NCBI GenBank assembly: GCA_963777315.1
Contig: CAVZQC010000002.1
Location: 320,001-384,000, forward strand
Length of the DNA: 64,000 bases
Direction of reading: 5' to 3'
DNA from: Vulcanimicrobiota bacterium
GTDB taxonomy: Bacteria > Vulcanimicrobiota > Vulcanimicrobiia > Vulcanimicrobiales > Vulcanimicrobiaceae
Below are positions 16,432 to 45,739 of the stretch, piece after piece. Within the stretch, counting starts at the first letter, position 1; each line of letters begins with the position of its first letter. The translations under genes were made by a program, and so were the position numbers. The notes under the pieces were generated by a model that was not told where the DNA came from, did not search any database, and was given only the letters and a program-made list of their open reading frames with translations.

Positions 16432-16869
16432 TCAATACACCGGCGCGCGGCGCGCTCCCTCGGCCAAATACCGCCGGGCAATGAGCAAAGCGGCGTAGTC
16501 GTCTATGGGCCGAGGGGGCAACTGCAGCCCCAGCGGTATCAACCGGCGCCACCCGCGCGGAGGGTTCTCCGAGAAGTATAAGGCGCGCGCCCCGTAGGTG
16601 GTATTGGTTTCGTCGATGACGTGCACCGGTATGCCCAGTTCGCCGAAGAGCTTGCCGAGCGCGGCCGAGTTCGTGCCAGCGCCGAGCGCCACGGCGTCGA
16701 TTGGATGCGCGGCCAGCAGCGGCGAAAGCCGGTCCATGAGCGCGGAAAGGGGCTCGATGCCCAGTGCGATAGGCGCCAGCGTGGGAGCCGACACCAAGGC
16801 ATAGCCGGCCTTCCGCGTGCCCGGATCGATGCCCAAGACGGCCGGTTCGGGCGTTCCCGAAACGCTCAC
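16432..16869 (-). CDS. yqgF: YqgF/RuvX-family RNase H-fold nuclease
   Basis: VLGIDPG, VIDETNTT, IDDYAALLIARRYL; PPRGWRRLIP insert resembles cyanobacterial-type YqgF. Confidence 0.8.
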   Translation of the reverse strand: MSVSGTPEPAVLGIDPGTRKAGYALVSAPTLAPIALGIEPLSALMDRLSPLLAAHPIDAVALGAGTNSAALGKLFGELGIPVHVIDETNTTYGARALYFSENPPRGWRRLIPLGLQLPPRPIDDYAALLIARRYLAEGARRAPVY

Positions 16870-17822
16870 TGCGCCGGCACCTTTTGGAGCGTGATGACTA
16901 CCGGCACGCGGAAGGTGTGCGGGTAGATGTCCTGCGCGGCGAACGCCGTCATCACGTAGTTGCCGCTGCCGGCCAGCATCTTCTGCATGTCCGCGACCGA
17001 CGGGAAGGTCCGCTGCGGCACGACGTTGCCCGCGAAATCGAACGGCATGCCGCGCGAAACCATCTCGTGCGGCACGCCGCCTTCGAGCAGCTCGGCGACG
17101 GCCAAATCGGCGCTGGCGTTTTTGCCCGCAGGAATCGGGCCCAGGGTCGCGATCGCCTCGCCGCCGGGCACGAGCAGCCTATCGGGGACGGGAGTGATGC
17201 CGAAGTGGATGGCGTCGTTGGGGTACAGGTTCTGGTCCGCCGTTACGATGAGCAGCACGTCGCTTTGGGAAGTCCACGCTTCCATCTGCGGACTGCCGGA
17301 CAGCGTGCCGAGCATGCGATCGACGTTGGACGGCGGGGAAAATTTTTTGAGCCGGTAAGGCGGCCGGGTGTAGACGCGGTTGACGTACGCGACGGTCTGC
17401 TGGTAGAAGTTCTGCACGATGTCTTTGCGCAAACCCGCCGGAGCGTTTTGCGGAATGCGCCCGACCGACGTGCTCATCAGCGCGCCCAGGCCGACGAGCA
17501 CCGGCGAGTTCGTCACCTTCTGTTCGAGTTCGTTCGCGCGCGCCTGCGCCTTTTCGATTTCGGCGTTGATTTCGTTCAAGCGAAAGAACGCCGTCTGGAC
17601 CTGATTGGAAGCGAATATCGCAACCAGCGTGATGACCAGCGCGATGACCATGCCCGTGGCGACGGCGACGATCGTCGACGTGTACCGCGGTCTGATGTTG
17701 AATAGCGTGAGACGTTTGCGTCCCACTTGATGACCGACCCGGTCGCCGATGTACGCGATAACGCCGGCGATGATGACGATGAACACGACGATTCCCACGC
17801 CGCGCAAAATGCCCAGGTGCAT
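16866..17822 (-). CDS. DUF3084-like membrane protein
   Basis: IAYIGDRVGHQVGRKRLTLFNIRPRYTS N-terminal signature, 2 TMs, short coiled coil. Confidence 0.8.
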   Translation of the reverse strand: MHLGILRGVGIVVFIVIIAGVIAYIGDRVGHQVGRKRLTLFNIRPRYTSTIVAVATGMVIALVITLVAIFASNQVQTAFFRLNEINAEIEKAQARANELEQKVTNSPVLVGLGALMSTSVGRIPQNAPAGLRKDIVQNFYQQTVAYVNRVYTRPPYRLKKFSPPSNVDRMLGTLSGSPQMEAWTSQSDVLLIVTADQNLYPNDAIHFGITPVPDRLLVPGGEAIATLGPIPAGKNASADLAVAELLEGGVPHEMVSRGMPFDFAGNVVPQRTFPSVADMQKMLAGSGNYVMTAFAAQDIYPHTFRVPVVITLQKVPAQ

Positions 17823-17831: not shown

Positions 17832-18944
17832 TTACGCCACCGCGGCGCGGTACAGGCGGCGCGCGCCGATGAGGGTGAAGATGACGTTCGGCATCCAGGC
17901 GGCCAGTGCGGCCAGTGGCAAGAACGCTTCGCCGATGTACGAGAAAATCGTGGAAACGACGTAGTATACGAAAACGATCAGCACGGCCAAGCCGAATCCC
18001 AAACTCGTGCTGGCGCCGCTGCGGATCGAGCGGATGCCGTACGGCACGGCGATGAGCGTGAAGACGAAGCATGCAAACGGCGTGGCGAGTTTCTCTTGAA
18101 AAACCATGGTGTATTTACGCACTTCGGCGGCGGACAGCTGGCCGCTGCGAATGATTTGGGCAATCTGCGCGCGGTTCAAATCGTCCGGATTGTTGTTCGC
18201 CGCGCGTTTGACGATATCGGTTGGCTTCTGTCCCAGCTCGACCTGCAGCGTAGGCGTGTCCGCGGCCGTAACGGTCTGGCCCGCAGCACCGAACCGGTAT
18301 ACTTTCGCATTGTCCAAGGTCCATCGGTCCGCGTCGAACACCGCGCGGTCCGCGAACACGATCTGCGTCGGAACGCCCGCGCGGTCGTACTGGACGAGCG
18401 TTACGCCCAGCAGTGCTCGGCAATTCTGAGCGCACGCGCGGGCGAACGTCATCTGACTGCCGCCGCCGGGAAGCGGCGCGGAAACGTTCAAACTGGTCGC
18501 AAACGCGCCGGCCTTTTCGATGATCGTGTTTTGAATGATGTTGAACTGCTCGCGCGCGTAGGGAACCACGCGTTCCTGCAGCAGCAAGGTGACGAAGGAC
18601 AGCAGAAATCCTGCAACGAGAATGGGCGCGACGATGCGCAGGAAGGTGATGCCGCCCGCTTTCATCGCCGTGATCTCGCTTTCGCCGCTCAATCGCTGCA
18701 CCGCAAGCAGCGTTCCCAGCAGCAGCGCCATCGGTATCGCAAGCACGACGATTGGCGGAAGCTGCCACAAAAACGCTTCGATCGCGGCCCATAACGGCGC
18801 ATGCGTTTCGGAAACGACCCTGCCGATGTTGATGATCTGCGTGGCAGCGAAGATCAGGGTAAACGCGGACAGTCCGAAGAGAAACGGACCGACCAGCTCG
18901 GAGAGCATGTAGCGGTCTAGGATCGCCATTCGCGGCAAGGTCAA
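17832..18944 (-). CDS. LptF/LptG (YjgP/YjgQ) family LPS export permease
   Basis: ILDRYM, LSGESEITAMKAGG, periplasmic jellyroll, AWMPN; alternative ATG at 18929. Confidence 0.92.
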   Translation of the reverse strand: MTLPRMAILDRYMLSELVGPFLFGLSAFTLIFAATQIINIGRVVSETHAPLWAAIEAFLWQLPPIVVLAIPMALLLGTLLAVQRLSGESEITAMKAGGITFLRIVAPILVAGFLLSFVTLLLQERVVPYAREQFNIIQNTIIEKAGAFATSLNVSAPLPGGGSQMTFARACAQNCRALLGVTLVQYDRAGVPTQIVFADRAVFDADRWTLDNAKVYRFGAAGQTVTAADTPTLQVELGQKPTDIVKRAANNNPDDLNRAQIAQIIRSGQLSAAEVRKYTMVFQEKLATPFACFVFTLIAVPYGIRSIRSGASTSLGFGLAVLIVFVYYVVSTIFSYIGEAFLPLAALAAWMPNVIFTLIGARRLYRAAVA

Positions 18945-19693
18945 AGGCGAAACCCTTCACCCAAATAAAAGCGCCGCGCGATCGGGCTTTCCAGCACGTC
19001 GTGCGCCGTGCCCGAAACTTCGATCTTGCCGTTGTTGAGGATGTACGCGCGATCGACGATCGCCAGCGTCTCGCGCACCTGGTGGTCCGTGATCAGAATG
19101 CCCAAGCCGCGATCGCGCAGTTGGCGAATCATCGCCTGAATGTCCGCGACCGCAATCGGATCGATTCCGGTGAAGGGTTCATCGAGCAGCAGAAACGCGG
19201 GCTCGGTTGCGATGGCGCGCGCGATTTCCACGCGGCGGCGCTCGCCGCCCGACAAGCTGTCGCCGCGCGCGTTGATGAATTGAAGCAATCCGAACTCGTC
19301 GAGCAGCGGCGGCAGCCGCTTTTCCTGTTCGTCCCGCGCCACGCCGTGCATTTCCCAGATGAGCCGCACGTTATCGCCGACGGAGAGCTTGCGGAAAATC
19401 GAGTTTTCCTGCGATAAATACCCGATGCCGCGGCGCGACCGCACGTACATCGGAGCCCCCGTCAAATCGATCCGCTCCCCGTCCACGGAAAGCAGTACGG
19501 ATCCGCCGTCGGGTTTGACCAAGCCGATGACCATGTAGAACGTCGTGGTTTTGCCCGCGCCGTTCGGACCGAGAAGGCCCACGATTTCACCGGTGCGCAC
19601 TTCCGCATCGACTCCGTTGACGACCGCGCGCTCGCCGTAGCGCTTGAGCAGGCCGCGCATAGTGATTTCGTTTTGGATGGCGTTACGCTCCAT
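18941..19693 (-). CDS. lptB: LPS export ABC transporter ATP-binding protein
   Basis: GPNGAGKTTTFYM, LSGGERRRVEIARA, LLDEPFTGIDP, LITDH, YLGEGFRL. Confidence 0.96.
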   Translation of the reverse strand: MERNAIQNEITMRGLLKRYGERAVVNGVDAEVRTGEIVGLLGPNGAGKTTTFYMVIGLVKPDGGSVLLSVDGERIDLTGAPMYVRSRRGIGYLSQENSIFRKLSVGDNVRLIWEMHGVARDEQEKRLPPLLDEFGLLQFINARGDSLSGGERRRVEIARAIATEPAFLLLDEPFTGIDPIAVADIQAMIRQLRDRGLGILITDHQVRETLAIVDRAYILNNGKIEVSGTAHDVLESPIARRFYLGEGFRL

Positions 19694-20236
19694 TTATTTC
19701 ATGACCATTCGCGTGAGCTTCACGTCCGAAGTGAAGGTGTTGCCGGTGAGCATCTGCCGGGCTCCGCCCTGCATGCCCGCGATCCGCACGTGACCGCTTC
19801 CGTGCAGCAGCCCGGCGCTCTGATCGTAGGCGAGCCGATCGCACGTCAGCGTCAGCCCCGTGCTGGTCTTGGCATGAACGCCGCCCGAGAGCACGACCTG
19901 CTTGCCGCCGCCCTCGAGCGACGCCGTCGGCGCCTGGGCCGTCATCCTCGTACCGTCCTTGTCGTAAAAGGTTACCGTCGGCTCCTGAAACGTTCCTTGG
20001 GCGGCGTTCTGCGCCGACCGGCTGGTGTACGAACGCGTCACCAGCTGGTAAACCTTGCGGTTACCCGATTGCTGAACGATGGTAACGGGATGTTTGGACG
20101 TTCCCTTTCCGGTTATCGTTAGGGCCGGCATGCTGCTGGGCTGGGGGGACGGGGTGGAATTTTGCGCGGGCTGCTGCGGTTGCGGATTGCAGGCCGCAAG
20201 CGCCAGCGCCAGACCGATCCAACCGGTTTTCATCAC
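19694..20236 (-). CDS. lptC: LptC-like LPS export periplasmic protein (lipoprotein signal)
   Basis: Directly upstream of lptB; beta-jellyroll pattern; LALAAC lipobox; start GTG 20236 or ATG 20233. Confidence 0.75.
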   Translation of the reverse strand: MMKTGWIGLALALAACNPQPQQPAQNSTPSPQPSSMPALTITGKGTSKHPVTIVQQSGNRKVYQLVTRSYTSRSAQNAAQGTFQEPTVTFYDKDGTRMTAQAPTASLEGGGKQVVLSGGVHAKTSTGLTLTCDRLAYDQSAGLLHGSGHVRIAGMQGGARQMLTGNTFTSDVKLTRMVMK

Positions 20237-21435
20237 ACTTCTCCCAGTCCGTGCGCTGCCGCCGCCAGCGCAAGCGCCATCGACGGCAGCCATAGCCCGA
20301 AGATGACGACGCTCACGGTATCGATGAGGCCTTGCACCCACGTCCCCACCAGTCCCGCCGCAACGGCGAGCGCTATGGCCGCATGGGCCGGAGGAGCCGC
20401 ACGCAGCCGGTCGTTCAACGCCACGCCGAACCGCCACCAGGCCGCCAGCACCGCAACTAGCCCTACCAGTCCCGTTTCGGCAAATATCGTCAGCAAAAAG
20501 CTGTGGGCGTGAAACGCCTGCACGTCGCCGTCGGGCAAACGCACCAGCGGATAGATTCGGGCAAAATCAAACGGACCCACGCCGGTGAGCGGAAAGCGGC
20601 GCGCGATCTCGACGCCGGCTTGCCAAATCGACAGACGCGTGTAGTTTTCAGCCGGATTGTGATGCGCGTTGAAGACGACCAGCACCGCCGCCAGACCCGC
20701 CAGCAAAATCAGCGGCGCGTATCGCCGGCGTACGCTTCCGCTGAAGAACGCATAAAACGCTATTGCGGCCGCCAATCCCATCCAGCCCGCGCGCGAAAAC
20801 GTCAGCACGAAGGCGGCGGATCCCAGTACGAGCGCGCACCAGCCGGCAACGCGCAGGCGAGCATCGTTCGTGATTCGCGCAACCGCAAACGCTATCGGCA
20901 GAAAGATGATGAGATATCCGGCCAGCTCCCCAGGGAGAATAAACGTTCCGATCGCGCGTCCGTGACCGATCGCGTACTGATCTGCCGGCCGCCGCGCGAG
21001 CACCATGAGGATCGCGGTCAGCGACGCAAGCGCGCCGGAAAGCAGATAACTCCAATAGATCGCGCGGCTCACGCCGGGTTGGGCATAAAAGCGCAGCAAG
21101 CTCAAATGCCACAACAGCCCTAAACCGAAGATGCCGATGAACAGCATCCCCGCTGCAGGATCGAATCCCAGAACGGCCGATACGAAGGCGGCGCACAGCC
21201 ACGCACACAACGCCGGCAGGGTGGCGGCCCGGTGCAGCGGCGGCTGCAGCAGCATCCCGGCTGCGTACACCGACAGCACTGCCATGGCCGCCAGCAGCCC
21301 AACGGCGAACGCGCGCGGCACGAGCGAAACGCCCGGAATGGTGACTGCCGTCAGCGTGATGAACGGCGGAAAGAGCGGCAGCACGAAGTACGGCAGCGCC
21401 AGTGCCGCCGGCATGAACGTCCTCAACCGCACCAT
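20233..21435 (-). CDS. O-antigen ligase (WaaL/Wzy_C)-like membrane protein
   Basis: Many TMs; RAIGTF, TFSRAGW, RLSIW, PLTGVG, HAHS...ETGLVG motifs. Confidence 0.88.
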   Translation of the reverse strand: MVRLRTFMPAALALPYFVLPLFPPFITLTAVTIPGVSLVPRAFAVGLLAAMAVLSVYAAGMLLQPPLHRAATLPALCAWLCAAFVSAVLGFDPAAGMLFIGIFGLGLLWHLSLLRFYAQPGVSRAIYWSYLLSGALASLTAILMVLARRPADQYAIGHGRAIGTFILPGELAGYLIIFLPIAFAVARITNDARLRVAGWCALVLGSAAFVLTFSRAGWMGLAAAIAFYAFFSGSVRRRYAPLILLAGLAAVLVVFNAHHNPAENYTRLSIWQAGVEIARRFPLTGVGPFDFARIYPLVRLPDGDVQAFHAHSFLLTIFAETGLVGLVAVLAAWWRFGVALNDRLRAAPPAHAAIALAVAAGLVGTWVQGLIDTVSVVIFGLWLPSMALALAAAAHGLGEV

Positions 21436-22562
21436 CGCGCCACCTCCCGTGCGATCGTTTTGGCTGCACCGGGCGGTCCCATCCGGCTGCGGCCTGCCTG
21501 GCTCATGCGTGCGCGCAGCGATTCATCGCCGAGCACGCGATCGACGCACTGAGCCGGATCGGGATCGTTCGGGCCCAATACCAGCAGCGCTTCACCCAGC
21601 AATGCGATCTGGCGATTGCGATACCACGCGCGCCGCCCGGAAGGCTCCAGCGCGACGACCGGAATTCCGGCCGCTGCCGCAGCTTCGTTCGCCGTTCCGG
21701 CTTGACCCAGCACCAGCGCGCAAGCGCGCAGCATTGCACCGGGGGATCCGCGCCACGCGCGCACGATTTCGCGTTCGTTCTCGTACAACGCAAAGGGCGC
21801 ATCCCGCGCGCCGCTGCGCCGCACGTCCCAGCCGGCGGCGGCAAGTCCGTTCGCCATCGAATCCGGATCGAGTCCCGGCGCAACCGAAAGCAGGGCGCCC
21901 AGCCGCTCGTGCCGGCCGGCAAGGTCGCGCACCACCGCGCACAAGACGATTGCATCGCCGTACGCGGCTTGCCGGCTGCCCGGAAAGAGCGCGAGGCATG
22001 GATCGAACGGCACATCGACGGTTTCGCTCGCGGGACCGGCATAGAGATCGACGATGACGTTTGCGCTGCGCGCGTCGATGCCGCGCTCGCGCAGATCCAG
22101 CGCCGTCGCCTCGTCCCGTACGTAGACTGCCTGCGCTTTGCGAAGGACGAGCTGTTCCAATGCGCCGTACCGAGCGACGTACACGCTCTTGGCCGTGCCC
22201 ACGAAAATGGTCGCGCGCGCACGTGCGCCCAGCGCCATCAGCAGCGCGTAGACGTCGCCCACGGCGATTGCCGCACAATACGTCTGCGCCACGCCGTGCA
22301 GAAAACGCAGCTGCGCCAACGTGTGGGCCGGCAGCCCCGCGCGCACGTCTTGCAGGATGTTGCGTACGTTCCCCATAGCGATCAGACCGCCGCTGGGCAT
22401 CGCGCGGCGGGGGCCGACGTCGCGCATCGCGGACTGGTGCGGAAAATCGCCGACCAGAGCCAGATGATCGCACGCGAGAGCAGACGGCAGTTCGCGCGCG
22501 ATCCGCGCGGCGATAGCCACCTCGCCATGTCCGTTCGTCACCACGAGCGCGGTGTTCGTCAC
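21423..22562 (-). CDS. Lipid-A-disaccharide synthase-related GT-B protein (TIGR03492-like)
   Basis: TNGHGE, MPSGG, AVGD, FVGTAKS, PGSR, AGTANE, RMGPPGA motifs; GTGA overlap with the upstream stop. Confidence 0.85.
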   Translation of the reverse strand: MTNTALVVTNGHGEVAIAARIARELPSALACDHLALVGDFPHQSAMRDVGPRRAMPSGGLIAMGNVRNILQDVRAGLPAHTLAQLRFLHGVAQTYCAAIAVGDVYALLMALGARARATIFVGTAKSVYVARYGALEQLVLRKAQAVYVRDEATALDLRERGIDARSANVIVDLYAGPASETVDVPFDPCLALFPGSRQAAYGDAIVLCAVVRDLAGRHERLGALLSVAPGLDPDSMANGLAAAGWDVRRSGARDAPFALYENEREIVRAWRGSPGAMLRACALVLGQAGTANEAAAAAGIPVVALEPSGRRAWYRNRQIALLGEALLVLGPNDPDPAQCVDRVLGDESLRARMSQAGRSRMGPPGAAKTIAREVARWCG

Positions 22563-23290
22563 GGCCGCAGCGGCAGCAGCGCGAAGTCGGCCAGGCGCCA
22601 GCGCGAACCATCGTACTGTAAGTCGCTGCGCGACACGTACTTTCCGTACGGACCGGCGTGCACGATTGGAACGCCGCGCACCATTGCGGGCTCGGCCAGC
22701 GTATCGTGACTGTGGCCGCCGAGCAGCAGATCGATGCGCGGCACCGCCGCCGCCAGCCGCTTGTCGAGCGACAAGCCCAAGTGCGAGAGGACGATCAGCG
22801 GTTCGTTCGGCGCGAGATGCGCCGCAATATCGCAAACGACCGTCGCCGGATCCAAAAACCGCCAGCCGAAGAGGCGCTCCCACGCACTGCCGATCGGATA
22901 TTGCATGATAAGCAATCCGAGCACGTGCACCGGTACCGGCGTCGACGAAACCCCGGGTCGAAACTCCAGCGTCAGCTTGCGGGAGAACGGCAGCGCGCGA
23001 TTTCGCGTGTCGACCAAATTGCTGCACACCAGCGGATGCCGCATTTGCGCCGCGCGCGCCCGAACGCATCCGAACAGGTAATGAAACTCGCGGTTGCCGA
23101 TCGCTTGCGCATCGTACGCGGCCGCATCGATTTCCGCGATAATGGGTTCCCGGCGGTGAAAAACCGTTTGGCTGCCGCGCAGCGAATCGCCGCAGTCGAA
23201 CAGCAGCCCCGCATCGCTAGCGCGCAGCTCGCGCAGCCGCGGCGCGATGCCGCGGCGATCGTGCAGATCCGAAGTATGGTACACGAGCAT
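22559..23290 (-). CDS. Calcineurin-like metallophosphoesterase (UshA/5'-nucleotidase N-domain only)
   Basis: HTSDLH, DCGD, GNRE, LSHLG, GGHSH motifs; 243 aa; ATG 2 nt after the lpxB stop. Confidence 0.9.
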   Translation of the reverse strand: MLVYHTSDLHDRRGIAPRLRELRASDAGLLFDCGDSLRGSQTVFHRREPIIAEIDAAAYDAQAIGNREFHYLFGCVRARAAQMRHPLVCSNLVDTRNRALPFSRKLTLEFRPGVSSTPVPVHVLGLLIMQYPIGSAWERLFGWRFLDPATVVCDIAAHLAPNEPLIVLSHLGLSLDKRLAAAVPRIDLLLGGHSHDTLAEPAMVRGVPIVHAGPYGKYVSRSDLQYDGSRWRLADFALLPLRP

Positions 23291-23292
23291 CG

Positions 23293-24408
23293 CTATGCGT
23301 TCCGGGCCAGCGCGACTGCGAATGCGGCGCACTTTTCGAGCGCATCCGGCGACCCCAGCGCTTCGCGCAGATCGCTCAGCTGCCGATACTGCCGCTGCGG
23401 ATAGTGCAGCAAGTCGTCCATTGCGGCCGCAAGCGCTGCGGGCGTGGCATCGTGCTGCAGCAGTTCGGGAACCGCTTCCCGCTGTAAAACCAAATTCGGG
23501 AGCGTCACGAAACGGCCCGGATAGACCCGGCGCGCGTGGCGAACCAGCGCGGGTGCCAGAATGTACAGCGCGACCGCCGGCACGCCCGAAAGTGCGCACT
23601 CCAGAACGGCGGTCCCCGAGGCTACCCACGCCGCATCGGCATCGGCGATCGCCTCACGGGTTCCGCGCACGAATCGTACGCTTTCGACGCCGAAACGCGC
23701 GGCGTGCGCGCGCAGCGTTCGCTCCGCTCGTGCGTCGGCCGCACCCACGACGGCGCGCAGCTGCGGACGGCGCACGCGCAGTTCGTTGAACGCGGCGAAC
23801 AATGCGGGCGCGTGGTAACGCAACTCGGTGTCGCGGCTGCCCGGCAAAATCGCGACGCAGCCGCCGGCTGCGCTCGGCGCCTGGCGCGCAGGGCGCAGCG
23901 CGTACTGCGGTGCAAGCGGATGACCGAAGTACTCGACGCGCAAACCGAGCCTACGGTAAAACTCGTACTGGTGCCGGAATGCCGTAAGCGGCACGGCCAG
24001 CGCTGCAACTTCCCGGGCCGTACGCTCGCGGTCCAGCCACGTCGCGGGCGGAAATACGTCGAGGATCGGCCCGGCGTATCCGATCGAACGCAGGCGTTTC
24101 GCCAAACGCAGATTGAACGCGCCGAAGTCGACGAGCACGACGAGCTGCGGCCCCGAGCGCGCGATGTGACGCGCCGTAGCCAGCATTGCGAGCAGCAGCT
24201 TCGGAACGCGCGGAACGGCGGCCAACGGTCCGATGCTGGCCCACCCGGAATGATCGCGCCAGAGCGCAAAGCCGGCCCGGCGCATGCGCGCGGCGCCGAT
24301 GCCTTCGAATTGCGCCTGTGTGTCGATGCGCGCGATTGCGCCGGCAAGAATCGTGGCGGCCAGCTCCCCCGAAGCCTCACCGGTCGAAAAGAAATAGCGC
24401 ATAATCAC
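23293..24408 (-). CDS. lpxB: Lipid-A-disaccharide synthase
   Basis: GEASGE, VDFGAFN, GHPL, LPGSR, SGTAVLE, LPN, PELLQ motifs. Confidence 0.93.
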   Translation of the reverse strand: MIMRYFFSTGEASGELAATILAGAIARIDTQAQFEGIGAARMRRAGFALWRDHSGWASIGPLAAVPRVPKLLLAMLATARHIARSGPQLVVLVDFGAFNLRLAKRLRSIGYAGPILDVFPPATWLDRERTAREVAALAVPLTAFRHQYEFYRRLGLRVEYFGHPLAPQYALRPARQAPSAAGGCVAILPGSRDTELRYHAPALFAAFNELRVRRPQLRAVVGAADARAERTLRAHAARFGVESVRFVRGTREAIADADAAWVASGTAVLECALSGVPAVALYILAPALVRHARRVYPGRFVTLPNLVLQREAVPELLQHDATPAALAAAMDDLLHYPQRQYRQLSDLREALGSPDALEKCAAFAVALARNA

Positions 24409-24448: not shown

Positions 24449-25219
24449 TCACTTCAGTAGTATGCCGCGCTGTGATTCGCCTTCCAAAAACTCGAGCATG
24501 TGGCGCCCGGAATCGGTATTGACCTCGGTGCGCATGGCTTCAATGGTTTGCGACAGCTTGCGCTTGGAGCCGTTGAGCAGTTTGTAGAGTTTTTTGATTT
24601 CGGCTCGTTCGCGCTCGCTGAAGTTGGCTCGGCGCAGGCCGATGCTGTTGAGCCCATAGGGCGTGGCCGGATTGCCTTCGACCAAAAAAAACGGCGGTAC
24701 GTCGCGGGTCACCTTCGAATCGCCGCCGACGAAAGCATAGCGCCCCACGCGAACGAACTGATGCAGCCCGGCCATGCCCGCGATCGAAGCGTTGTCTTCG
24801 ATGATGCAGTGACCGGCCAGCTGCGCAAGGTTGCTCATCGTGATGCCGTTGCCCAAGGTGCAATTGTGCGCGACGTGCACGTACGCGAGCAGCAGGCAGT
24901 CATCGCCCACGCACGTGGCCTGGTCTTCGCCGGTCGCGCGTTGAATGCTCACGTATTCGCGCACGGTCGTGCGGGAGCCGATGCGCGTGTACGCCCGTTC
25001 GCCCATGTATTTTTTGTCCTGCGAGGCGGCGCCGACCGTTGCGAACGGGTAGATGAGGCAGTCTTCGCCGATGGTCGTCCACCCGTTGACCACGACATGC
25101 GCCTGCAGTACCGTGCCGCGCCCGATCGAAACGTTTTCCCCGACGACGCAGTACGGCCCGATCTCGACGCCCCGGTCCAGCTTCGCGCTGGGATGTACGA
25201 TGGCGGTAGGATGGATCAC
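24449..25219 (-). CDS. lpxA: UDP-N-acetylglucosamine O-acyltransferase
   Basis: IHPTAIVH hexapeptide repeats, HVAHNC, LAGH, HQF, DVPPF, GLNSIGLRR; GTG start overlaps the fabZ stop. Confidence 0.97.
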   Translation of the reverse strand: MIHPTAIVHPSAKLDRGVEIGPYCVVGENVSIGRGTVLQAHVVVNGWTTIGEDCLIYPFATVGAASQDKKYMGERAYTRIGSRTTVREYVSIQRATGEDQATCVGDDCLLLAYVHVAHNCTLGNGITMSNLAQLAGHCIIEDNASIAGMAGLHQFVRVGRYAFVGGDSKVTRDVPPFFLVEGNPATPYGLNSIGLRRANFSERERAEIKKLYKLLNGSKRKLSQTIEAMRTEVNTDSGRHMLEFLEGESQRGILLK

Positions 25220-25689
25220 TGATGCAGAACCGCCGCGTCGAACCCGAACAGACGCGGATCGGACGCGATCGAAAACATCAACTCGGCGGAAACGACGAAC
25301 TGATCCTCGACGCGGCCTTCGGCATGCACCCAGCCGATGTTTCGCTTGTGTTTGGTCAGCGTTACTTCCATCGTAAAGCGGTCTCCGGGCACGACCGGAC
25401 GGCGAAACTTGGCCGAATCGATGCCCGCCAGATACGGCGTCTTGCGCGAGAACTCGCCCGGTTCGAGCACGACGCATCCGCCCAGCTGCGCGAGCGCTTC
25501 TATCATGTAGACGCCGGGAAGCAGCGGGTTGCCGGGAAAGTGCCCGGTGAAGACCGGTTCGGTTGCGGTGACGTTTTTGTATCCGACGGCCCGCACGCCC
25601 GGCTCCAAATACGTTATGCGATCGACCAGCAAAATCGGATAGCGGTGCGGCAGAATTTCCATAATCTGCCGGATGTCCAGCTCGGCCAC
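25216..25689 (-). CDS. fabZ: 3-hydroxyacyl-ACP dehydratase
   Basis: LPHRYPILLVDR, FTGHFPGNPLLPGV, EALAQ, FRRPVVPGD. Confidence 0.97.
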   Translation of the reverse strand: MAELDIRQIMEILPHRYPILLVDRITYLEPGVRAVGYKNVTATEPVFTGHFPGNPLLPGVYMIEALAQLGGCVVLEPGEFSRKTPYLAGIDSAKFRRPVVPGDRFTMEVTLTKHKRNIGWVHAEGRVEDQFVVSAELMFSIASDPRLFGFDAAVLHQ

Positions 25690-25691
25690 CG

Positions 25692-26534
25692 CTATTGAAC
25701 GCCCGCGGAGGGCAGTTTGGTCTGCATGCCGCGGCGCAGCTGGGCGGTTGCGATGCAGTGCAGCTTGTGACCGCTCTTGACGGCGACGATCTCGCATTGC
25801 GGCCACGCGCCCAGCAGCGCGACGTCGCCGAGCAGATCGAGCACCTTGTGGCGCACGGGCTCGTTGTCCCAGCGCATCGGCTGCATGGGGCCGTCAGGCG
25901 CGAACACCAAAGCGTTTTCCAGCGTGCCGCCGCGCGCGAGGCCGCGTTCGCGCAGCGCTTCGACTTCGTGCAGATAGCCGAAGGTGCGCGCCGGCGCGAT
26001 CTCCTTGCAGAAGAATTCCGGCGTGATTTCGCCGTCGAAATACTGCGTGCCGATCGGCGGGGCGAAATCCGCCACGAAGCGTACGCCCAGCTGCGACGCC
26101 GGCAGAACGATGACGACCCGATCCCCGTCGCGCACGAATTCCGGCGTCATCGGCACGAAGCGCGGGCGCACTTCGCGCTGCGCGACCGCGCCGACCTCGG
26201 CGAAGGCTTGCGCGAACAGTCTGGCGCTCCCATCGGCAACCGGAATCTCGGGTCCGTCGACATGGATCCGCGCGTTGGCGATCCCCATCGCAAAAATCGC
26301 GGCCAGCAAATGCTCGATCGTCGAGATCGTCGTGCCGTTCTTGCCGATCACCGTTGCGCGCGCGGTTTCCACGACGTTTTCGGCCAGCGCGGGAATCTCG
26401 ACGCCGCGCGTGACGAAGCACAGACCCGTATCCGCCGGTGCCGGCCGCACTTGCACGCGGCACGCCGCGCCCGTGTGCAGTCCGACGCCTTCGAACCGCA
26501 CGCAATCGCGCAGCGTCGTTTGGAATTCCATCAT
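25692..26534 (-). CDS. lpxC: UDP-3-O-acyl-GlcNAc deacetylase
   Basis: GVGLHTG, TIEHLL, IAPARTFG, RHKVLDLLGD, GH motifs. Confidence 0.97.
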   Translation of the reverse strand: MMEFQTTLRDCVRFEGVGLHTGAACRVQVRPAPADTGLCFVTRGVEIPALAENVVETARATVIGKNGTTISTIEHLLAAIFAMGIANARIHVDGPEIPVADGSARLFAQAFAEVGAVAQREVRPRFVPMTPEFVRDGDRVVIVLPASQLGVRFVADFAPPIGTQYFDGEITPEFFCKEIAPARTFGYLHEVEALRERGLARGGTLENALVFAPDGPMQPMRWDNEPVRHKVLDLLGDVALLGAWPQCEIVAVKSGHKLHCIATAQLRRGMQTKLPSAGVQ

Positions 26535-26546
26535 TCGCGCGCCGCT

Positions 26547-27596
26547 TTACGGTTCGGAATCGCCGCCGTGCTCTGCATCGTGCGGCCGCTGCTTCTCCAG
26601 GGCGTCGACACGGGCAACCAGCTTAGGCAGGCTTGCAAGCATGACCTCTCGACGCAGTTCCTGCCCGTGCGGACGCGCCGGGCGGCCGCTCACGAACGCA
26701 TCGTCGGGAACGTCTCCCCACACCGCGCTGCCCGCGCCGATTTTTGCGCGAGATCCGATTGTGATGTGTCCTTTGAATCCCGCTTGTCCGCCGACTTGAA
26801 CGTAATCGCCGATCACCGTGCTGCCCGCGAGCCCGACTTGCGCGGCCATGCCGGTGCTTCGCCCGATGCGGCAGTTGTGTCCGATTTGGCACAGGTTGTC
26901 GATCTTGGTGCCCGCGCCGATCTGCGTGCTTCCGGTTTGGGCGCGATCGATGCACGTATTGGCGCCGACTTCCACGTCGTCGCCCAGCACGACGTTGCCG
27001 ACCTGCGGGATGCGTTCGAACCGCCCCTCTACAAAAACGTAGCCGAAGCCTTCGCTGCCTACGGTCGCGCCCGGATGAAGAATGACGCGCTTGCCGATCG
27101 CGCAGCCGTCCATGACGCGCGCTTGCGGATACAGCAGCGCATCTTCTCCTAGGTCGACGCCTTCGCCGACGAACGCCCCTGCCCCAACGACGCAGCCGTC
27201 GCCGACGCGCGAACCCGCGCCGATCACCGCGTTTGCGCCGATGTACACGCCCGCGCCGATGGCCGCAGTGGGATGGACGCTGGCGGCCGGATCTTGCGAA
27301 GGAGCGGGTTTGCGAACGCGATCGAACGCGCGCAACAACCGCATGAGCGCGACGCGCGCATCGGGCACCGCGATCAGCGGCTTGCGTTCCTCGCCGTGAA
27401 TAAGGGACTGGTCCACCAGAACCGCGGCGGCGTGCGAATCCAGCGCAGCCTTCAGGTAGGCCGAACTCGTGGCGAACGTCAGCGCATCGTCGCCGGCTTG
27501 CTCGATGGCCGCAATGCGCGATATGGAAAGATCCGGCGGCCCGTGCGCGACTCCACCGGCCAGCTGCGCGAGTTCCGAGAGAGTTCCCAGGCTCAC
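26547..27596 (-). CDS. lpxD: UDP-3-O-(3-hydroxyacyl)glucosamine N-acyltransferase
   Basis: Hexapeptide repeats, GSEGFGY, IPQVG, GANTCIDR, KIDNLCQIGHN. Confidence 0.97.
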   Translation of the reverse strand: MSLGTLSELAQLAGGVAHGPPDLSISRIAAIEQAGDDALTFATSSAYLKAALDSHAAAVLVDQSLIHGEERKPLIAVPDARVALMRLLRAFDRVRKPAPSQDPAASVHPTAAIGAGVYIGANAVIGAGSRVGDGCVVGAGAFVGEGVDLGEDALLYPQARVMDGCAIGKRVILHPGATVGSEGFGYVFVEGRFERIPQVGNVVLGDDVEVGANTCIDRAQTGSTQIGAGTKIDNLCQIGHNCRIGRSTGMAAQVGLAGSTVIGDYVQVGGQAGFKGHITIGSRAKIGAGSAVWGDVPDDAFVSGRPARPHGQELRREVMLASLPKLVARVDALEKQRPHDAEHGGDSEP

Positions 27597-27609: not shown

Positions 27610-28026
27610 TTACTGCGATGCCGAGGGGGCGGGCGACGGGCTCTCGGTGATCCCCATAGCCTTCTCGACGTCCGGCGTGATGTCTGTGCCGCCGTATCCC
27701 ACGAATTCTCGCGTCACGATGAGCTTGAGATTCTTCTGCTGGGCGACTTTGGCGGCGGCGCTTTTGATCTGCTGAACCAGCTGCTGCGATATCGCAGCAT
27801 ATTTGGCTTGCATCTGCGCGACGACGCGCTGTTTTTGGGCCGGAGAACCCCTTCCGGACTGCACGGCGCGCTCGTCGGCCAGCATCTGGTTGTTGGCGTT
27901 GGCGTATTGCGGCCAGTTCGACGTGATGCGCTGCACGTCGATTAGGCCCACAGGGCTCGTGCTCGCGCTGCAGCCGCCGAGGAGCGCCGCAGCCAGCGCT
28001 GCTGCGAGTATGCTGTTATTCTTCAC
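27610..28026 (-). CDS. Short OmpH/Skp-like lipoprotein
   Basis: LLGGC lipobox; VGLIDVQRI N-strand; YGGTDITPDV C-terminus. Confidence 0.8.
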   Translation of the reverse strand: MKNNSILAAALAAALLGGCSASTSPVGLIDVQRITSNWPQYANANNQMLADERAVQSGRGSPAQKQRVVAQMQAKYAAISQQLVQQIKSAAAKVAQQKNLKLIVTREFVGYGGTDITPDVEKAMGITESPSPAPSASQ

Positions 28027-29330
28027 TGATGTAAGCTCTCGATGTCCTTTTCGACGTCGCCGGTGAGGTCGATTCCGCCTCCGGCAGCCTCTATGCTCAT
28101 GAATACGACCTGTAATCCGCGCTTAGCGGCGACTTGCCCGGCATCGCGCTTGATTTGATCCACCATCTTGTTGTAGAGATCGTCCCGCTGGTGCTGCAGA
28201 TCGGCCAACTCTTTGCCGGCCGCCCCCACTGCGGCGCCGTCGGCACCATGGAGTGCGGCGTACTGTGCATCCAAATCCGCTTTGGTCTGCCGGTACTGAT
28301 CGACCGTTTTCTTCGCGTCGGCGGCGAACTGCGATTTGAACTGCTTGTCGATCTGCGCGAGTTTGTCGCGCGTGGCCGCCGGCAGGCCCGAAGGCACCGC
28401 TTGGGGCGTGAGGCCCTGCAGCTGCGAGGCGACTTGCTGCGAGACCTCGTTGCGGCGCTCGGTCAGCTTGGCTCGCGTTTGGGCGTGAATCTGCTGCGCG
28501 GCGGCGGACAGTTGGCTCTGCGTGCGGTCGCTCAAACGGCGCTGATAAGCTTGCAGCGTTTGCGCGTCGCTGCGGCGTTGCGCGGCCGCAGCGTCGGCCT
28601 CTTGCCGGTCGAGCGCTGCCAATCCGTCGCGGTACTGTTTGCGCTGCGCGTCGGAAAGCGCGAGATTATTGAGCTTCATGCGCAAGTCCAGCCGCTTGGC
28701 CGCGTCCTGCTGAGCCCGTTCCAAACTGAGTTGCGATTCGTGTTCCTGCAGTTGCGTGGCGCGCTGCCGGTAGGCTTGATCGGCGCGCGCGGCGAGCTGG
28801 CCGCGCAACTGAGATACTGCAGCGCTGTCCTGCCCGACGACGCTGCGCTGGTACGCCTGCATGTCCGCATTGGCCTGCGCGGAGACTTGCTGCGCCTGCT
28901 GCGCGGAAACTTGCTGCATCTGCGCGACGGATTGCGCTCCGTTCGTCCCGGCGCCTGCCGCAGCCAGCGCCGCACGGATTGCCGCCTGTTCGCGCTGGGA
29001 ATAGTCCTGTTGTTTTTGACGAAGGATCGCATTGGCGCGATCCTGCGCTTGCGTGAGCTCGCGGTTGAGCTCGCGCGTCTGCTGCACGATTTGGGCCTGC
29101 GTGTGCGTCACGGCCGTCGGTCCGAGCGACTTGAGCGAGAGGGCGTCGATCGCATTCTGCAGCTGCGACAGCTGTCCGTACAGCGGATGCGCTTTCACTA
29201 CCTCGTCGACGCGCACGTATCCGATGCCGCGAACGTTCGGATCGTCCGGGCGCGGCTGCTGCGCGCATCCCGCCGTCGCCAGCGCCGCAAGCACCACCGC
29301 CGCAGCCTTACTTGAGCGCATTTTGGACAT
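28023..29330 (-). CDS. Long coiled-coil OmpH/Skp-like lipoprotein
   Basis: ATAGC lipobox; IGYVRVDEVVKAHP; long Gln/Ala-rich coiled coil; GGIDLTGDV C-terminus. Confidence 0.75.
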   Translation of the reverse strand: MSKMRSSKAAAVVLAALATAGCAQQPRPDDPNVRGIGYVRVDEVVKAHPLYGQLSQLQNAIDALSLKSLGPTAVTHTQAQIVQQTRELNRELTQAQDRANAILRQKQQDYSQREQAAIRAALAAAGAGTNGAQSVAQMQQVSAQQAQQVSAQANADMQAYQRSVVGQDSAAVSQLRGQLAARADQAYRQRATQLQEHESQLSLERAQQDAAKRLDLRMKLNNLALSDAQRKQYRDGLAALDRQEADAAAAQRRSDAQTLQAYQRRLSDRTQSQLSAAAQQIHAQTRAKLTERRNEVSQQVASQLQGLTPQAVPSGLPAATRDKLAQIDKQFKSQFAADAKKTVDQYRQTKADLDAQYAALHGADGAAVGAAGKELADLQHQRDDLYNKMVDQIKRDAGQVAAKRGLQVVFMSIEAAGGGIDLTGDVEKDIESLHQ

Positions 29331-30114
29331 CCTGCGTGATGTCCGTGCCCCCGTAAATGACGTCCGACCGATCGACCACGAGGATCAAGTGCTTCTGCTG
29401 CGCCACCTTAGCCATTGCGGCTCGCGTCTGATCGACCAGCGGCTTGAGCGTCTTGTTTTGCTGCGCGGTGAGCGCTTTCTGATAATTCTGAAAGATCGCT
29501 TGCTGCTGCGTGGGGTTGTTCTTGGCCGACTGCATCTGCTTGAGCGCTTGCGATCGCTGCTGGTTTGCGTACTTGAGAAAATCGTCGTTGGCACTCTTGA
29601 TCTTCGGTACCTGATCGATTTGGCTTTGATCCACGAATCCTACGTCGGCGGGAGGAGGCGTGGCCACCGGGGCAACGACCGGGCCGGGGCCGTTGACCAA
29701 ATCGATGACGTTCTTGGTGATGTCCGTTCCTCCGTACACCACGATGCGCTTGTCGACGATTACGCCCAAATGTTGGTTGGAGCTGACTTGCGCGATTGCA
29801 GCTTGCGCGCGGCCGAACAGCGGTCCGAGCAGTTCGCGCTGCTTGTCCAAAAAGCGCTGCTGAAACTGGCCCGCAATGCGCTGGCGATCGGCATCGTTGT
29901 GCGCGCCTCTCATGGCCGAAGCGAACTGTCCGTCGAGCTGCACCTTGTACCGTGCAACCTGCGAATTGGCTCGCGCAAACTGGGGCAACGCGCCGATGGC
30001 TGCTTGATCGACGTAGCCCACGTCGGTCAGGTCCGCGGCAAGCGCGATCGGGGCCGCCATGAACGCCGCGATCGCCGCGGCCGCCAGAAACGGTGTGATC
30101 TTACGAATCTTCAT
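29308..30114 (-). CDS. skp: Tandem-domain OmpH/Skp chaperone
   Basis: Sec signal; two repeats each with DVG(Y/F)VDQ...YGGTDIT; immediately after bamA. Confidence 0.85.
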   Translation of the reverse strand: MKIRKITPFLAAAAIAAFMAAPIALAADLTDVGYVDQAAIGALPQFARANSQVARYKVQLDGQFASAMRGAHNDADRQRIAGQFQQRFLDKQRELLGPLFGRAQAAIAQVSSNQHLGVIVDKRIVVYGGTDITKNVIDLVNGPGPVVAPVATPPPADVGFVDQSQIDQVPKIKSANDDFLKYANQQRSQALKQMQSAKNNPTQQQAIFQNYQKALTAQQNKTLKPLVDQTRAAMAKVAQQKHLILVVDRSDVIYGGTDITQDVQNALK

Positions 30115-30136
30115 CGATCTTTCCAACGACTGTAGA

Positions 30137-32425
30137 TTAAAAACTCTGTCCGATGCCGAAGCTGGTGTGCGTGCCGGTGGAACCGCGCGCAAAGTCGATC
30201 CGGATCGTGTGCAGTCCGAGCTGCGGCACGTCGAAACGCAAGCCGAAGCCGTAGTCGCCGCGCCAGGCCCAATCCGCCGGGAAGCCGATGATGCGATTGG
30301 TGTAGGGGTCGAGAAGCGGCTGAGCGCCGCGCACGCGGAACCCGCCTTCGTCCACGAACAGGGCGACGCCGAACTTGCGGTCCGCGGTCAACGGCTTTCG
30401 CAGTTCGATTTGACCCAGCGCCGTATCGGTGCCGTAGAAGACCGAGTCGTATCCGCGCAGCTGCTGGTCGGAGAACGTGAACAGGTTGCTGGGCGGAATC
30501 GCGCCGGTGGACCCGCGCACCTGACCGTGGAACGCCAGCGTGGAATCTTTGAGCACCGGCAAAAACTTGGCCGCGTCGATGCTGGTTTGGGTGAAGCGGA
30601 AGTTCGATCCGAAACCGGGGGCCGAGAGCGTTTCGGATACCGATGCGGTCTGCCCGCGCCGCGGATTGAAGATGTCGTCGAGCGTTGCCGCCGGATTGGT
30701 TGAAACGCCGAACGTCACGGTGTTGAGCGTATACGGCTGACCCGTGTTGATGTTCGCAATCGAGCTCGCGACGATGCCGAAGCTGCCGGTGTTGTTGGTC
30801 AGATTGCTGAACGGTCCGGGCGAGGGTGCGATGACGATGTTCGGCTGAGTCGTTTGAAAGTAATACGGCGAAGGCACCGTGGTACTGTTGGTCACGCGCT
30901 GCGCTCCCACGCCGACCGATGCGGTTACGAAATCCGTCAAGCGGCGCCCCAGCTGCAAGCTGACGCCCTGCGATTTGGCCGTGCTGGTGGAGACGATGCC
31001 CGAAACCAGCTGCGCGTTACCGCTGGGCAGCAGGGTGACGGGAATCGGGACCGCGTTCTGACCGGGCGCGGGCGAAGGTAATGCGCTCGAGCCCAGCGCC
31101 GTCGAATACACCGGATAGAAGTACGTGTAGCCGTTGGCGAATACCGTCGCGCCGATGCTGTACTTTTGCGACTGCGGCGTGTTGCCGAAGTACGGAATGG
31201 TGATTTGCGCCTGCGTGACGTAGCTGCGCGAACCGCGCTCGAACTGCACCGATACGCCGTTGCCCGTGCCGTGCAGGTTGGTGTCCGAGTAGCCGATGGT
31301 GCCGTACAAGCCTTGCCCCGTCAGACCGCCCGAGTATCCCGCTCCGACCGAAGCCGCCGCGGTTTTCTGCTCGGTGACGATCCAGTCCAGCACCACGCAG
31401 CCCGGATCTTTCTTGGTCATCGCTTCGGGGCAAGGCTTGGGGTTCACGTCGACCTTGGAGAAAAAGCCGGTATTGTTGAGCCGCTCGATATCGCGCTGCA
31501 CGCCGTTTTTGCTCAGGATCATCCCGGGCCGTTCGTACAGCTCGCGGCGGATCACCTGATCTTTGGTCTTGGTGTTGCCGGTGATCTGCACCAATCCTAC
31601 GCGCGCGACGTAGACGTCGTACTTGACCTTGGCCGTACCGGTCTTTTCATCGATGGTCGCGGGATCGATGCCGCCTTCGAAATCGCCCACCAGCAGGTTG
31701 TATTTGTCGTACAGCTTCTGCACCGCCTGGGCGTCCTGCTGGCGCGTTTGGTCGGAATAGACTTGGCCGATTTTTGCCGTGAGCGCCGGCAGAAGCACCG
31801 TCGGCGGCAGAATCGGATCGCCGCCGATCTCGATGCCCGAGATCGTCAGACCTTCCTGGATGTCGATCGTCAGCGCGCCGGTTTTCGAATCGATTCCCAA
31901 GTTCTTGACGTGCGAAGGAATCTGACCGCCGTAGCCGATCCGGTCGTAATACGAATTGATCTTCAGAAAGTCTTGACGCAAGGTGTTGGTGTTGAGCACC
32001 TGGCCGACCGACGTGTCCATCAGTGCGAGCAGCGTGTCCGCCGGCACGTGCGCGTTGCCCGCAAACGCGATCTTCGTGATGACCGGATTCTCGATGACGC
32101 GATAGGTGATCGCCACGCCGCCGGGACGCTGGCGAATCAGCGGCGCGGCTTGATCGGCAAAGTAGCCAAGCGCAAAGATCCGCTGGAGATCGGCCTGCAC
32201 GACTTTGGGATCGTACGGTTCTCCCGGCCGCGCCTGGATGACCGCCAAGATCGTTTGCGTCGGAACGTGCACGTTGCCCGAAACGTCGACCGAAACGATT
32301 TTGGGAGCGGTTGCCGCAGCGCCGTTGACCGGCATGATCAGCATCATGACGGAAGCAAGTGCGAGCATCAGGCCCACACACCGGTGGAGCGCGCCGCGCG
32401 CACGCCAGAGGCTTGAGGTCATCAA
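30137..32425 (-). CDS. bamA: Omp85/BamA outer membrane protein assembly factor
   Basis: About 4 POTRA repeats (last: ITGNTKTKDQVIRRE), NLHGTG, LRGYD loop-6 motif, terminal FGIGQSF. Confidence 0.95.
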   Translation of the reverse strand: MMTSSLWRARGALHRCVGLMLALASVMMLIMPVNGAAATAPKIVSVDVSGNVHVPTQTILAVIQARPGEPYDPKVVQADLQRIFALGYFADQAAPLIRQRPGGVAITYRVIENPVITKIAFAGNAHVPADTLLALMDTSVGQVLNTNTLRQDFLKINSYYDRIGYGGQIPSHVKNLGIDSKTGALTIDIQEGLTISGIEIGGDPILPPTVLLPALTAKIGQVYSDQTRQQDAQAVQKLYDKYNLLVGDFEGGIDPATIDEKTGTAKVKYDVYVARVGLVQITGNTKTKDQVIRRELYERPGMILSKNGVQRDIERLNNTGFFSKVDVNPKPCPEAMTKKDPGCVVLDWIVTEQKTAAASVGAGYSGGLTGQGLYGTIGYSDTNLHGTGNGVSVQFERGSRSYVTQAQITIPYFGNTPQSQKYSIGATVFANGYTYFYPVYSTALGSSALPSPAPGQNAVPIPVTLLPSGNAQLVSGIVSTSTAKSQGVSLQLGRRLTDFVTASVGVGAQRVTNSTTVPSPYYFQTTQPNIVIAPSPGPFSNLTNNTGSFGIVASSIANINTGQPYTLNTVTFGVSTNPAATLDDIFNPRRGQTASVSETLSAPGFGSNFRFTQTSIDAAKFLPVLKDSTLAFHGQVRGSTGAIPPSNLFTFSDQQLRGYDSVFYGTDTALGQIELRKPLTADRKFGVALFVDEGGFRVRGAQPLLDPYTNRIIGFPADWAWRGDYGFGLRFDVPQLGLHTIRIDFARGSTGTHTSFGIGQSF

Positions 32426-32477
32426 AAATCTTTCCCTATGAGAGTTCGATGGTCCAACGCTCGTGGCGTTAGCTCTG

Positions 32478-32505
32478 TAACGCGCCCGGAACGCGCGCCG
32501 TTTCG
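32478..32505 (-). promoter_or_regulatory. Candidate ECF-sigma promoter upstream of bamA
   Basis: Minus strand cGAAAC-N17-CGTTA about 50 nt upstream of the bamA start; overlaps palindrome GCGTTA-N6-TAACGC. Confidence 0.3.
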
Positions 32506-32554
32506 ACCCGCACCGCCTGTTCGCGAGCGCGCTTCAAGACCCTTGCCCCGCATG

Positions 32555-32654
32555 AGGGAACCTCTGAAAAAGTCCCACGCGGCCATCGCCATATCGCTTT
32601 TCGTCCAAAAATCGCCACGACGCTGCACCACGGGGACTTCTTCAGAGATTCCCT
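32555..32654. mobile_element. 100-bp MITE-like element with 22-bp terminal inverted repeats
   Basis: AGGGAACCTCTGAAAAAGTCCC (32555-32576) vs reverse complement of 32633-32654, AGGGAATCTCTGAAGAAGTCCC (20/22 match); non-coding interior. Confidence 0.6.
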
Positions 32655-37993: not shown

Positions 37994-40718
<2,725 letters not shown>

Positions 40719-40722
<4 letters not shown>

Positions 40723-41816
40723 AGTGCGCTCACGACCGCATCCTGGATCGAATGCAGCTTGGCTTGCGGCAGATCGTCGGGGACATGGGTTGCGGTGATG
40801 AAGGCTTGTTCGAAGGTTCCGACTCCTTTCATGAACGCGCGTGCGCGCTCGGCGTCAAGTTCCGACAGCACGTCGTCGAGCAACAGCAGGGGTGCTTCCC
40901 CGGAGCGTTCCAGCATAACGCCGTATTCGGCAACCTTGAGCGCGAGTACCGCCGTGCGCTGCTGTCCTTGCGAACCGAACGGCGCCAGCGAAACGCCGTC
41001 GATCAGCATTTCCAGATCGTCCCGGTGCGGTCCGACAAGGGCAACCCGCCTTGCGCGTTCCTGCGCCGACGTCTCGCGCAGGCGTTCGCCGAACGCGCTT
41101 GCAATGGCGTCCTGCGAGCGCACCTTGAACGGTACCGCCGGCCGGTAGCGCAATTCGAGAGACTCAGACCCGCTCCAGCGGCGATGCTCGGCGCCGGCGC
41201 GCGCGCCGAGCGCTTCGACGTAGTGCGCGCGAGCCAGCACGATCTGCGTTCCGGCTTCGACCAGCGTATGATCGTAGACCGCCAGCAGTTCTGAATCGGG
41301 CGGCGCATCGGCGCGCAGCAGCGCGCCCTTTTGCGCCAGGGCCTTGTGATATCGCGCGAGCTCGTGATAGTACGCCGGGCGTTCCTGCGCAAGAGCGGCG
41401 TTCAAAAACGCGCGCCGCACGGCCGGGGGCCCGATGACGAGCTGCAAATCCGACGGCACGAACGTGACCACGCGCAAACTGCCCAGAAATCGCGCATACC
41501 GCACGCTGCGTCCGTTGAGCGTGTACGCTTTGCGCGTGCCGCGCGGCGTTGCGGAGATCGCGCAGCCAAGGCGGACGGTGCCGGCCCGCACGCGCGCCTC
41601 GCCGCCAACCGTTGCCAGTTCGAAGCCCTCCCGGATCAGATCGCGCTCTCGTGACGTGCGAAAAGATTTGCCGGTGCCCAGCAGTGAAATCGCTTCGAGC
41701 AGATTGCTCTTGCCTTGCGCGTTGCGGCCGACGAACACGTTGAGACCTTGCGCCGGTTCCAGTTCGAGCCGCGCGTAATTGCGCACGTTGGACAGGTGCA
41801 GGCTGGTCAATCTCAT
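40719..41816 (-). CDS. recF: DNA replication/repair protein RecF
   Basis: GRNAQGKSNLLEAI, GPHRDD, SQGQQR, LLLDDVLSELD. Confidence 0.97.
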
Positions 41817-41857
41817 CCGCTCGCGCGAACGAACTTCACGCAGCTGGACGGCACCCG

Positions 41858-45736: not shown

Positions 45737-45739
45737 TTC

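Follow-up and report, generated by a model that had tools for sequence, protein, structure and literature searches.

A conserved lipid A locus of Vulcanimicrobiota with candidate substitutes for the missing WaaA and LpxH enzymes

A lipid A pathway reduced to LpxA, LpxC, LpxD and LpxB has already been described for Cyanobacteria and Dictyoglomi, according to the accessible part of a comparative survey (PMC3087551). For cyanobacteria, whose lipopolysaccharide (LPS) free of 3-deoxy-D-manno-octulosonate (Kdo) is chemically documented, our literature searches retrieved no publication naming a replacement for WaaA or LpxH. In Fimbriimonas, seven lipid A genes are reported, and the accessible main text does not name them (PMC4072686). 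Here, we describe an envelope gene cluster in a 64,000-nucleotide stretch of a Vulcanimicrobiota (Eremiobacterota) genome (contig CAVZQC010000002.1, positions 320,001 to 384,000 of the forward strand; the whole stretch is called the window), in which a metallophosphoesterase (MPE), a TIGR03492-like glycosyltransferase (GT) and an O-antigen-ligase-like protein are encoded between lpxB and lptC. The locus is a variant of the known four-enzyme pathway of the cyanobacterial type. The gene content of this slot was observed directly; the slot may be the central part of a lipid A pathway that extends across the phylum and lacks LpxH or LpxI, LpxK, WaaA and Kdo, a chemical reading that we hold to be evenly poised. 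Literature searches, which left out most subscription papers, retrieved no publication on these families in Vulcanimicrobiota; phylogenomic surveys of Terrabacteria envelopes, or their supplements, may already list this cluster.

Missing enzymes and gene order

Profile searches covered the host genome (G000; 89.9% complete) and a sample of 121 genomes of the phylum, 64 from the host class and 57 from other classes; kin within the sample are not independent, and G116, which has not been published, adds one to the tallies and supports no separate claim. As a positive control, E. coli matched the LpxK, WaaA, KdsA and LpxH models; for LpxI, the matching control was Caulobacter. A scan of the genome collection gave close relatives only, and other phyla are represented by 14 control genomes, 12 metagenome loci and Atlas cluster labels (leads only). 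LpxA, LpxC, LpxD and LpxB of the Raetz pathway are all present, and no match to LpxK, WaaA, LpxI or LpxH was obtained in the profile searches of the host genome. Its KdsA match is a 3-deoxy-D-arabino-heptulosonate 7-phosphate synthase; of its three CTP_transf_3 (KdsB) matches, the two examined are GlmU and MocA, and the KdsB search covered this genome. Across the sample, LpxI and LpxH gave no profile match (0 of 121 each), LpxK gave three weak matches, none convincing and the best one without an lpxK model match, and WaaA and KdsA exceeded their cut-offs in a single genome, a bin with 9% contamination in which the two share a contig. Because WaaA and KdsA are confined to that bin, no LpxK match is convincing, and LpxH and LpxI gave none in the 121 genomes, a Kdo-free pathway in the phylum is well supported. 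The sequence-only reading had described a slot devoid of lpxK, waaA, kds and msbA genes, which is correct at the locus; genome-wide, the absence extends to the Kdo and 4'-kinase genes, in both the host genome and the sample, but not to msbA, since two full-length MsbA-like exporters (496 and 458 bits; cut-off 602) are encoded elsewhere in the host genome. A regular-expression motif scan of the host genome, made without an LpxG model, found one other metallophosphoesterase only, of the GNHD type.

The whole cluster has the order tamB-bamA-three ompH-like genes-lpxD-lpxC-fabZ-lpxA-lpxB-MPE-GT-ligase-lptC-lptB-lptF/G-DUF3084-ruvX, with the following features:

27610..37908, minus strand: tamB, bamA and three ompH-like genes, the head of the cluster
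24449..27596, minus strand: lpxD, lpxC, fabZ and lpxA (NCBIfam models above cut-off)
23293..24408, minus strand: lpxB, lipid A disaccharide synthase (PF02684, 177 bits; TIGR00215, 147 bits, cut-off 190; LpxB clade, 100/100)
22559..23290, minus strand: MPE, a stand-alone metallophosphoesterase of the UshA/5'-nucleotidase type with a GNRE motif, candidate UDP-2,3-diacylglucosamine hydrolase (243 amino acids)
21423..22562, minus strand: GT, a TIGR03492-like, LpxB-related GT-B protein (379 amino acids; TIGR03492, 187 bits, cut-off 219.2)
20233..21435, minus strand: O-antigen-ligase-like (Wzy_C, IctB-like) membrane protein (PF04932, 75.5 bits)
19694..20233, minus strand: lptC (TIGR04409, 43 bits, above cut-off)
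17832..19693, minus strand: lptB and a single lptF/G (TIGR04406, 322 bits; PF03739, 260 bits)
16432..17822, minus strand: DUF3084 protein and RuvX/YqgF-like protein, the end of the cluster (kept in 20 of 20 class loci)

The tight packing from lpxB to lptC that had been read from the sequence was confirmed, with no gap or overlap above 13 bases: lpxB and MPE are 2 bases apart, MPE and GT share 4 bases (GTGA), GT and ligase overlap by 13 bases, and ligase and lptC by 1 base. The order is unchanged in all 20 loci from the host class; of 80 additional loci, 68 share it (11 of the others end at a contig edge, and 1 diverges past the GT), and this recurrence argues that it is not due to chance. Promoter and terminator scans gave hits at chance level only. 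The lptC product starts with a lipobox-like signal (LAAC), and there is no lptA gene between lptC and lptB. Downstream of the lpt genes, positions 15265-16383 encode a class-conserved protein that has a signal-peptide-like start, ends in Phe and matches no family; it may be an outer-membrane barrel. In many loci of other classes, homologues of a 558-amino-acid protein of no known family (11740-13416) are encoded between lpxD and lpxC. On the other side, gyrB-recF-dnaN-dnaA and yidC-mnmE-gidA-parAB (37997-54381) adjoin the envelope cluster, placing it beside the probable replication origin.

The phosphoesterase, the TIGR03492-like protein and the ligase

MPE corresponds to the N-terminal domain of 5'-nucleotidase/UshA, with all metal ligands and no hydrophobic segment. 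It is present in 119 of the 121 genomes at an E value of 1e-45, one of which (G023) has long frames only. All 119 close homologues and every one of the 67 short representatives carry the GNRE motif, and GNH is mostly retained in long 5'-nucleotidases; in the accessible part of the survey, a His-to-Arg exchange in the third metallophosphoesterase block is found only in LpxH (PMC3087551). MPE gave no match to the LpxH model TIGR01854, and it is devoid of the C-terminal substrate domain, the export signal and the GNH histidine of UshA and 5'-nucleotidases. A split 5'-nucleotidase was considered and rejected for the host class, as PF02872 is absent from the host genome and was seen in 8 of the 63 remaining genomes of that class. 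Since LpxH and LpxI are absent and the gene lies next to lpxB, a role in forming lipid X is plausible, and MPE is a candidate for this hydrolase that we would accept or doubt with equal readiness.

It is the pair of MPE and GT that forms the conserved unit. In the 20 other-class loci used for synteny, MPE is upstream of the GT in 18, and three clean, full-length MPE-GT fusions (P0143, P0405 and P0421; 39-56% identical) come from at least two lineages. In two genomes (G001 and G008), MPE stays beside an LpxB paralogue (GT2a, described below) and an LmtA-like gene, apart from the GT. Among 12 distant GNRE loci from metagenomes, two have envelope genes as neighbours (L195:6995-13944 and L190:5216-7732): in one, the phosphoesterase precedes two PMT-family genes and lptC-lptA-lptB-lptFG, and in the other it follows kdsD-kdsC. 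A third follows a stand-alone 5'-nucleotidase C domain.

The match of the GT to TIGR03492 spans positions 1-393 of the 396 of the profile. The family gives a strong match in 120 of the 121 genomes, 70 of which pass the cut-off, and the GT groups with members that pass it (clade 99/98; one tree row out of frame, L173, was left out of the reading). A second LpxB-related GT-B enzyme with NGHGE, PGSR and AGTANE motifs had been proposed for this slot, and all three motifs are indeed present; PGSR is invariant in 26 sequences, and the GT motif of LpxB is invariant as well. The GT keeps the PGSR loop and the Thr of LpxB, for which residue roles are given in the accessible part of a structural study (PMC5785501); it has no LPN motif, its Asp and Glu are shifted, and it matches neither PF02684 nor TIGR00215. 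The predicted structure takes the GT-B fold (predicted local distance difference test score of 93.7). One homologue, P0434 (727 amino acids), consists of a full LpxK fused to a TIGR03492 domain, and this fusion, together with the retained PGSR loop and Thr, ties the family to lipid A. Three control genomes match TIGR03492; two of these matches, not told apart, pass the cut-off, Deinococcus radiodurans being one of the three. Synechococcus elongatus is another and also matches LpxA and LpxC, with no match to WaaA or LpxK. DR2625 of D. radiodurans appears as 'lipid A disaccharide synthase-related' in a single table row of PMC4507557. A plasmid search gave no match for the GT, and a literature search found no publication naming TIGR03492. 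Four apparent GT-ligase fusions (P0432, P0433, P0435 and P0436), each incomplete in both halves, were set aside as likely frameshift artefacts. In one family of another class (f11; L064:9037-11389, and G019, G024 and G028), two TIGR03492 copies are located near each other.

The ligase-like protein belongs to the PF04932 family, which also holds polymerases and protein O-glycosylation enzymes; its best NCBIfam match is the IctB family (72 bits against a cut-off of 366), and IctB is reportedly an O-antigen ligase in S. elongatus. It has 11 hydrophobic segments and invariant R160, R215, R267 and H311. These family marks agree with the earlier proposal that it attaches a polysaccharide, although the synteny is restricted to the host class: orthologues are present in 64 of 64 class genomes and weakly in 7 of 57 others, and the gene is adjacent in none of the 20 other-class loci. 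The ligase is thus a class-level addition outside the ancient unit, and the compact GT-ligase module of the sequence-only reading was not borne out. In the accessible part of PMC9477826, IctB is placed in the ligase superfamily and may export polymer.

LpxB paralogues and a heptose operon

A further LpxB-like family, GT2, was first met in the other-class loci and is present in 120 of the 121 genomes. The tree separates LpxB, TIGR03492, GT2a and GT2b, with GT2b as a distinct clade (99/99). In 10 of the 20 other-class loci, the segment from lpxB to MPE contains GT2a together with an LmtA-like methyltransferase gene. The copy in the host genome is GT2b, outside the window (G000:C2:550035-551258), within the operon gmhA-rfaE1-rfaE2-GT2b-GT-A-GT9-mscS-GT-A-GT9-GT-A (G000:C2:544338-553348, locus L082), a candidate Kdo-free heptose core operon. 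Around 20 GT2 copies away from lpxB (8 from the host class and 12 from others), rfaE2 or hldE is directly upstream of GT2b in 17, usually with GT9 genes, and a heptose kinase is found in 116 of the 121 genomes. In family f17, rfaE is absent and only the lpxB-side GT2 copy was seen; its three genomes are one lineage, so that the loss counts as one event.

By profile, GT2b is closer to LpxB (E value of 2e-15) than the window GT is (1e-3), and the GT2 family aligns with the window GT from end to end (probability 99.5). GT2b does not reach the cut-off of the WaaA family PF04413, for which the only matches were weak (E value near 1e-3), with two falling inside GT2 frames. Heptosyltransferases normally require Kdo as the acceptor. 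A heptose pathway without Kdo, adjoined by an LpxB paralogue, suggests direct heptosylation of the 6'-OH, which is chemically like the acceptor of LpxB. We infer that GT2b is a better candidate WaaA substitute than the window GT, to which the addition of the first core sugar had been assigned; that assignment is not the best reading in view of the LpxK fusion, the match in D. radiodurans and the separate, heptose-linked LpxB paralogue.

LmtA-like methyltransferases are encoded in 120 of the 121 genomes, all below the cut-off. In the host genome, the gene is beside gmd (C6:86660-87259, L085); among the other-class loci L056-L073 it is found between lpxB and MPE, and one open reading frame fuses it to GT2a (L058:11289-13250). 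In several other-class loci (L064:17807-18829, L062:5332-6312 and similar ones), a gene resembling UDP-N-acetylglucosamine (GlcNAc) 3-dehydrogenase (GnnA-like), absent from the window, lies between fabZ and lpxA, a position that hints at diaminoglucose lipid A in those classes.

Proposed pathway and comparison with known systems

In the proposed pathway, LpxA, LpxC and LpxD would produce UDP-diacylglucosamine, from which the GNRE phosphoesterase MPE may, on an even judgment, release lipid X. LpxB would then form a disaccharide 1-phosphate that is not 4'-phosphorylated, and its paralogues would glycosylate this product in the cytoplasm: GT2b would start the core by transferring heptose onto the 6'-OH in the place of Kdo, a step that we neither favour nor disfavour, and the TIGR03492 protein might, with rather less assurance, place another kind of sugar on the lipid A backbone in a reaction coupled to that of MPE; this sugar could be acidic and stand in for a phosphate charge. 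An MsbA-like exporter would flip the product, the class-specific ligase would probably attach an undecaprenyl-linked glycan, and LptC, LptB and LptFG would export the finished LPS.

Several points weigh against this pathway, all activities of which are deduced. The fold of MPE is much closer to that of 5'-nucleotidases (2z1a, Z-score = 27.2) than to that of LpxH (5b49, Z-score = 10.3, root mean square deviation [rmsd] = 3.2, 156 aligned), and LpxG-type hydrolases could still act in the phylum. MPE is fused to the TIGR03492 GT and not to LpxB, the MPE-GT pair occurs without any lpx gene in the fetched stretch in 3 of the 20 other-class loci, and none of the 12 distant GNRE loci is beside lpx or TIGR03492 genes. 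D. radiodurans matches TIGR03492, yet gave no LpxA or LpxC match. ADP-heptose could feed other glycans, and three other Wzy_C proteins are encoded in the host genome. The pairs away from lpx genes, the unlinked distant loci and the D. radiodurans match, with the MPE-GT fusions, would fit a two-step module acting on one substrate: MPE would take off a phosphate or nucleotide (e.g., the 1-phosphate of lipid A or a moiety of a different envelope glycolipid), the GT would add a sugar at the position so exposed, and another hydrolase would make lipid X. We consider such a module unlikely: the LmtA-like gene and GT2a between lpxB and MPE in half of the other-class loci hint that the 1-phosphate is kept, MPE is found with these genes away from the GT in G001 and G008, and the motif scan left just one other metallophosphoesterase in the host genome.

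There is little probability, in our view, that the TIGR03492 GT itself substitutes for WaaA, transferring a first core sugar (e.g., galacturonic acid, as in cyanobacteria) to the 6'-OH, with the adjacent ligase completing the LPS. Its place in the lpx operon of nearly all genomes and the gene complement of S. elongatus speak for it, as does cyanobacterial lipid A, in which galacturonic acid is present and Kdo and phosphate are absent (accessible part of the review PMC4390846); however, the linkage to heptose and GT9 genes and the closer relation to LpxB belong to GT2b, the TIGR03492 family is fused to LpxK and also matched in D. radiodurans, and the ligase is confined to the host class. The top fold and PDB profile matches of the TIGR03492 protein are UDP-GlcNAc 2-epimerases (Z-score = 23.2, rmsd = 5.7; E value of 8e-5), which, with the missing LPN motif and the shifted Asp and Glu, could indicate that it epimerises nucleotide sugars, or accompanies LpxB without being catalytic, rather than acting as a lipid glycosyltransferase. 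This is highly improbable, as many glycosyltransferases follow at a Z-score only about 2 lower, PGSR and the GT motif are invariant, and the protein aligns with GT2 over its full length.

Extended from the pathway proposed above, a speculative and rather doubtful view is that the whole phylum has an undescribed LPS type. Its lipid X would come from a fourth hydrolase class with 5'-nucleotidase ancestry, both 4'-phosphate and Kdo would be missing, one LpxB paralogue would attach heptose directly to lipid A, and the TIGR03492 protein would contribute a further sugar. If so, LpxB paralogues would account for the missing lipid A glycosyltransferases in diderm Terrabacteria, perhaps with cyanobacteria among them. 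A little-studied soil phylum without several textbook enzymes points to unstudied substitutes, the best candidate for the first sugar being outside the window. The window locus and its partner heptose operon give three soluble candidate enzymes; the finding is valuable because it names enzymes that can be tested, and these candidates bear on the nature of the ancestral bacterial outer membrane.

Compared with E. coli LpxB (PDB 5W8S/5W8N; PMC5785501, in its accessible part), the window GT shares the GT-B fold, the PGSR loop and the GT motif, whereas the PF02684 match and LPN motif are absent, the acidic residues are shifted and the clade is separate. MPE resembles LpxH and LpxG (accessible parts of PMC3087551 and PMC4807358) in its calcineurin-like metal centre, with GNR as in LpxH; on the other hand, it derives from the 5'-nucleotidase/UshA N-domain, does not match TIGR01854 and is without the GNHD motif and membrane helix of LpxG. 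The ligase shares PF04932, the 11 hydrophobic segments and the invariant Arg and His with the WaaL/IctB superfamily but falls below the IctB cut-off and is syntenic in one class only. As in the diderm Firmicutes, Omp85, lpx and lpt genes are in one locus with a single LptF/G; the clusters of Negativicutes and Halanaerobiales, in the accessible part of PMC5007114, carry lpxI, lpxK, waaA, kdsABCD and msbA, none of which is in the cluster here. The closest likeness is to Cyanobacteria and Dictyoglomi (PMC3087551, as accessible), which share the lpxD-lpxC-fabZ-lpxA-lpxB cluster and the absence of LpxH, LpxK and WaaA. Whereas cyanobacterial LPS is described as being without heptose, the phylum studied here keeps ADP-heptose genes and GT9s, and it differs further in its additional LpxB paralogues (two or three), its LmtA-like gene and the GNRE phosphoesterase.

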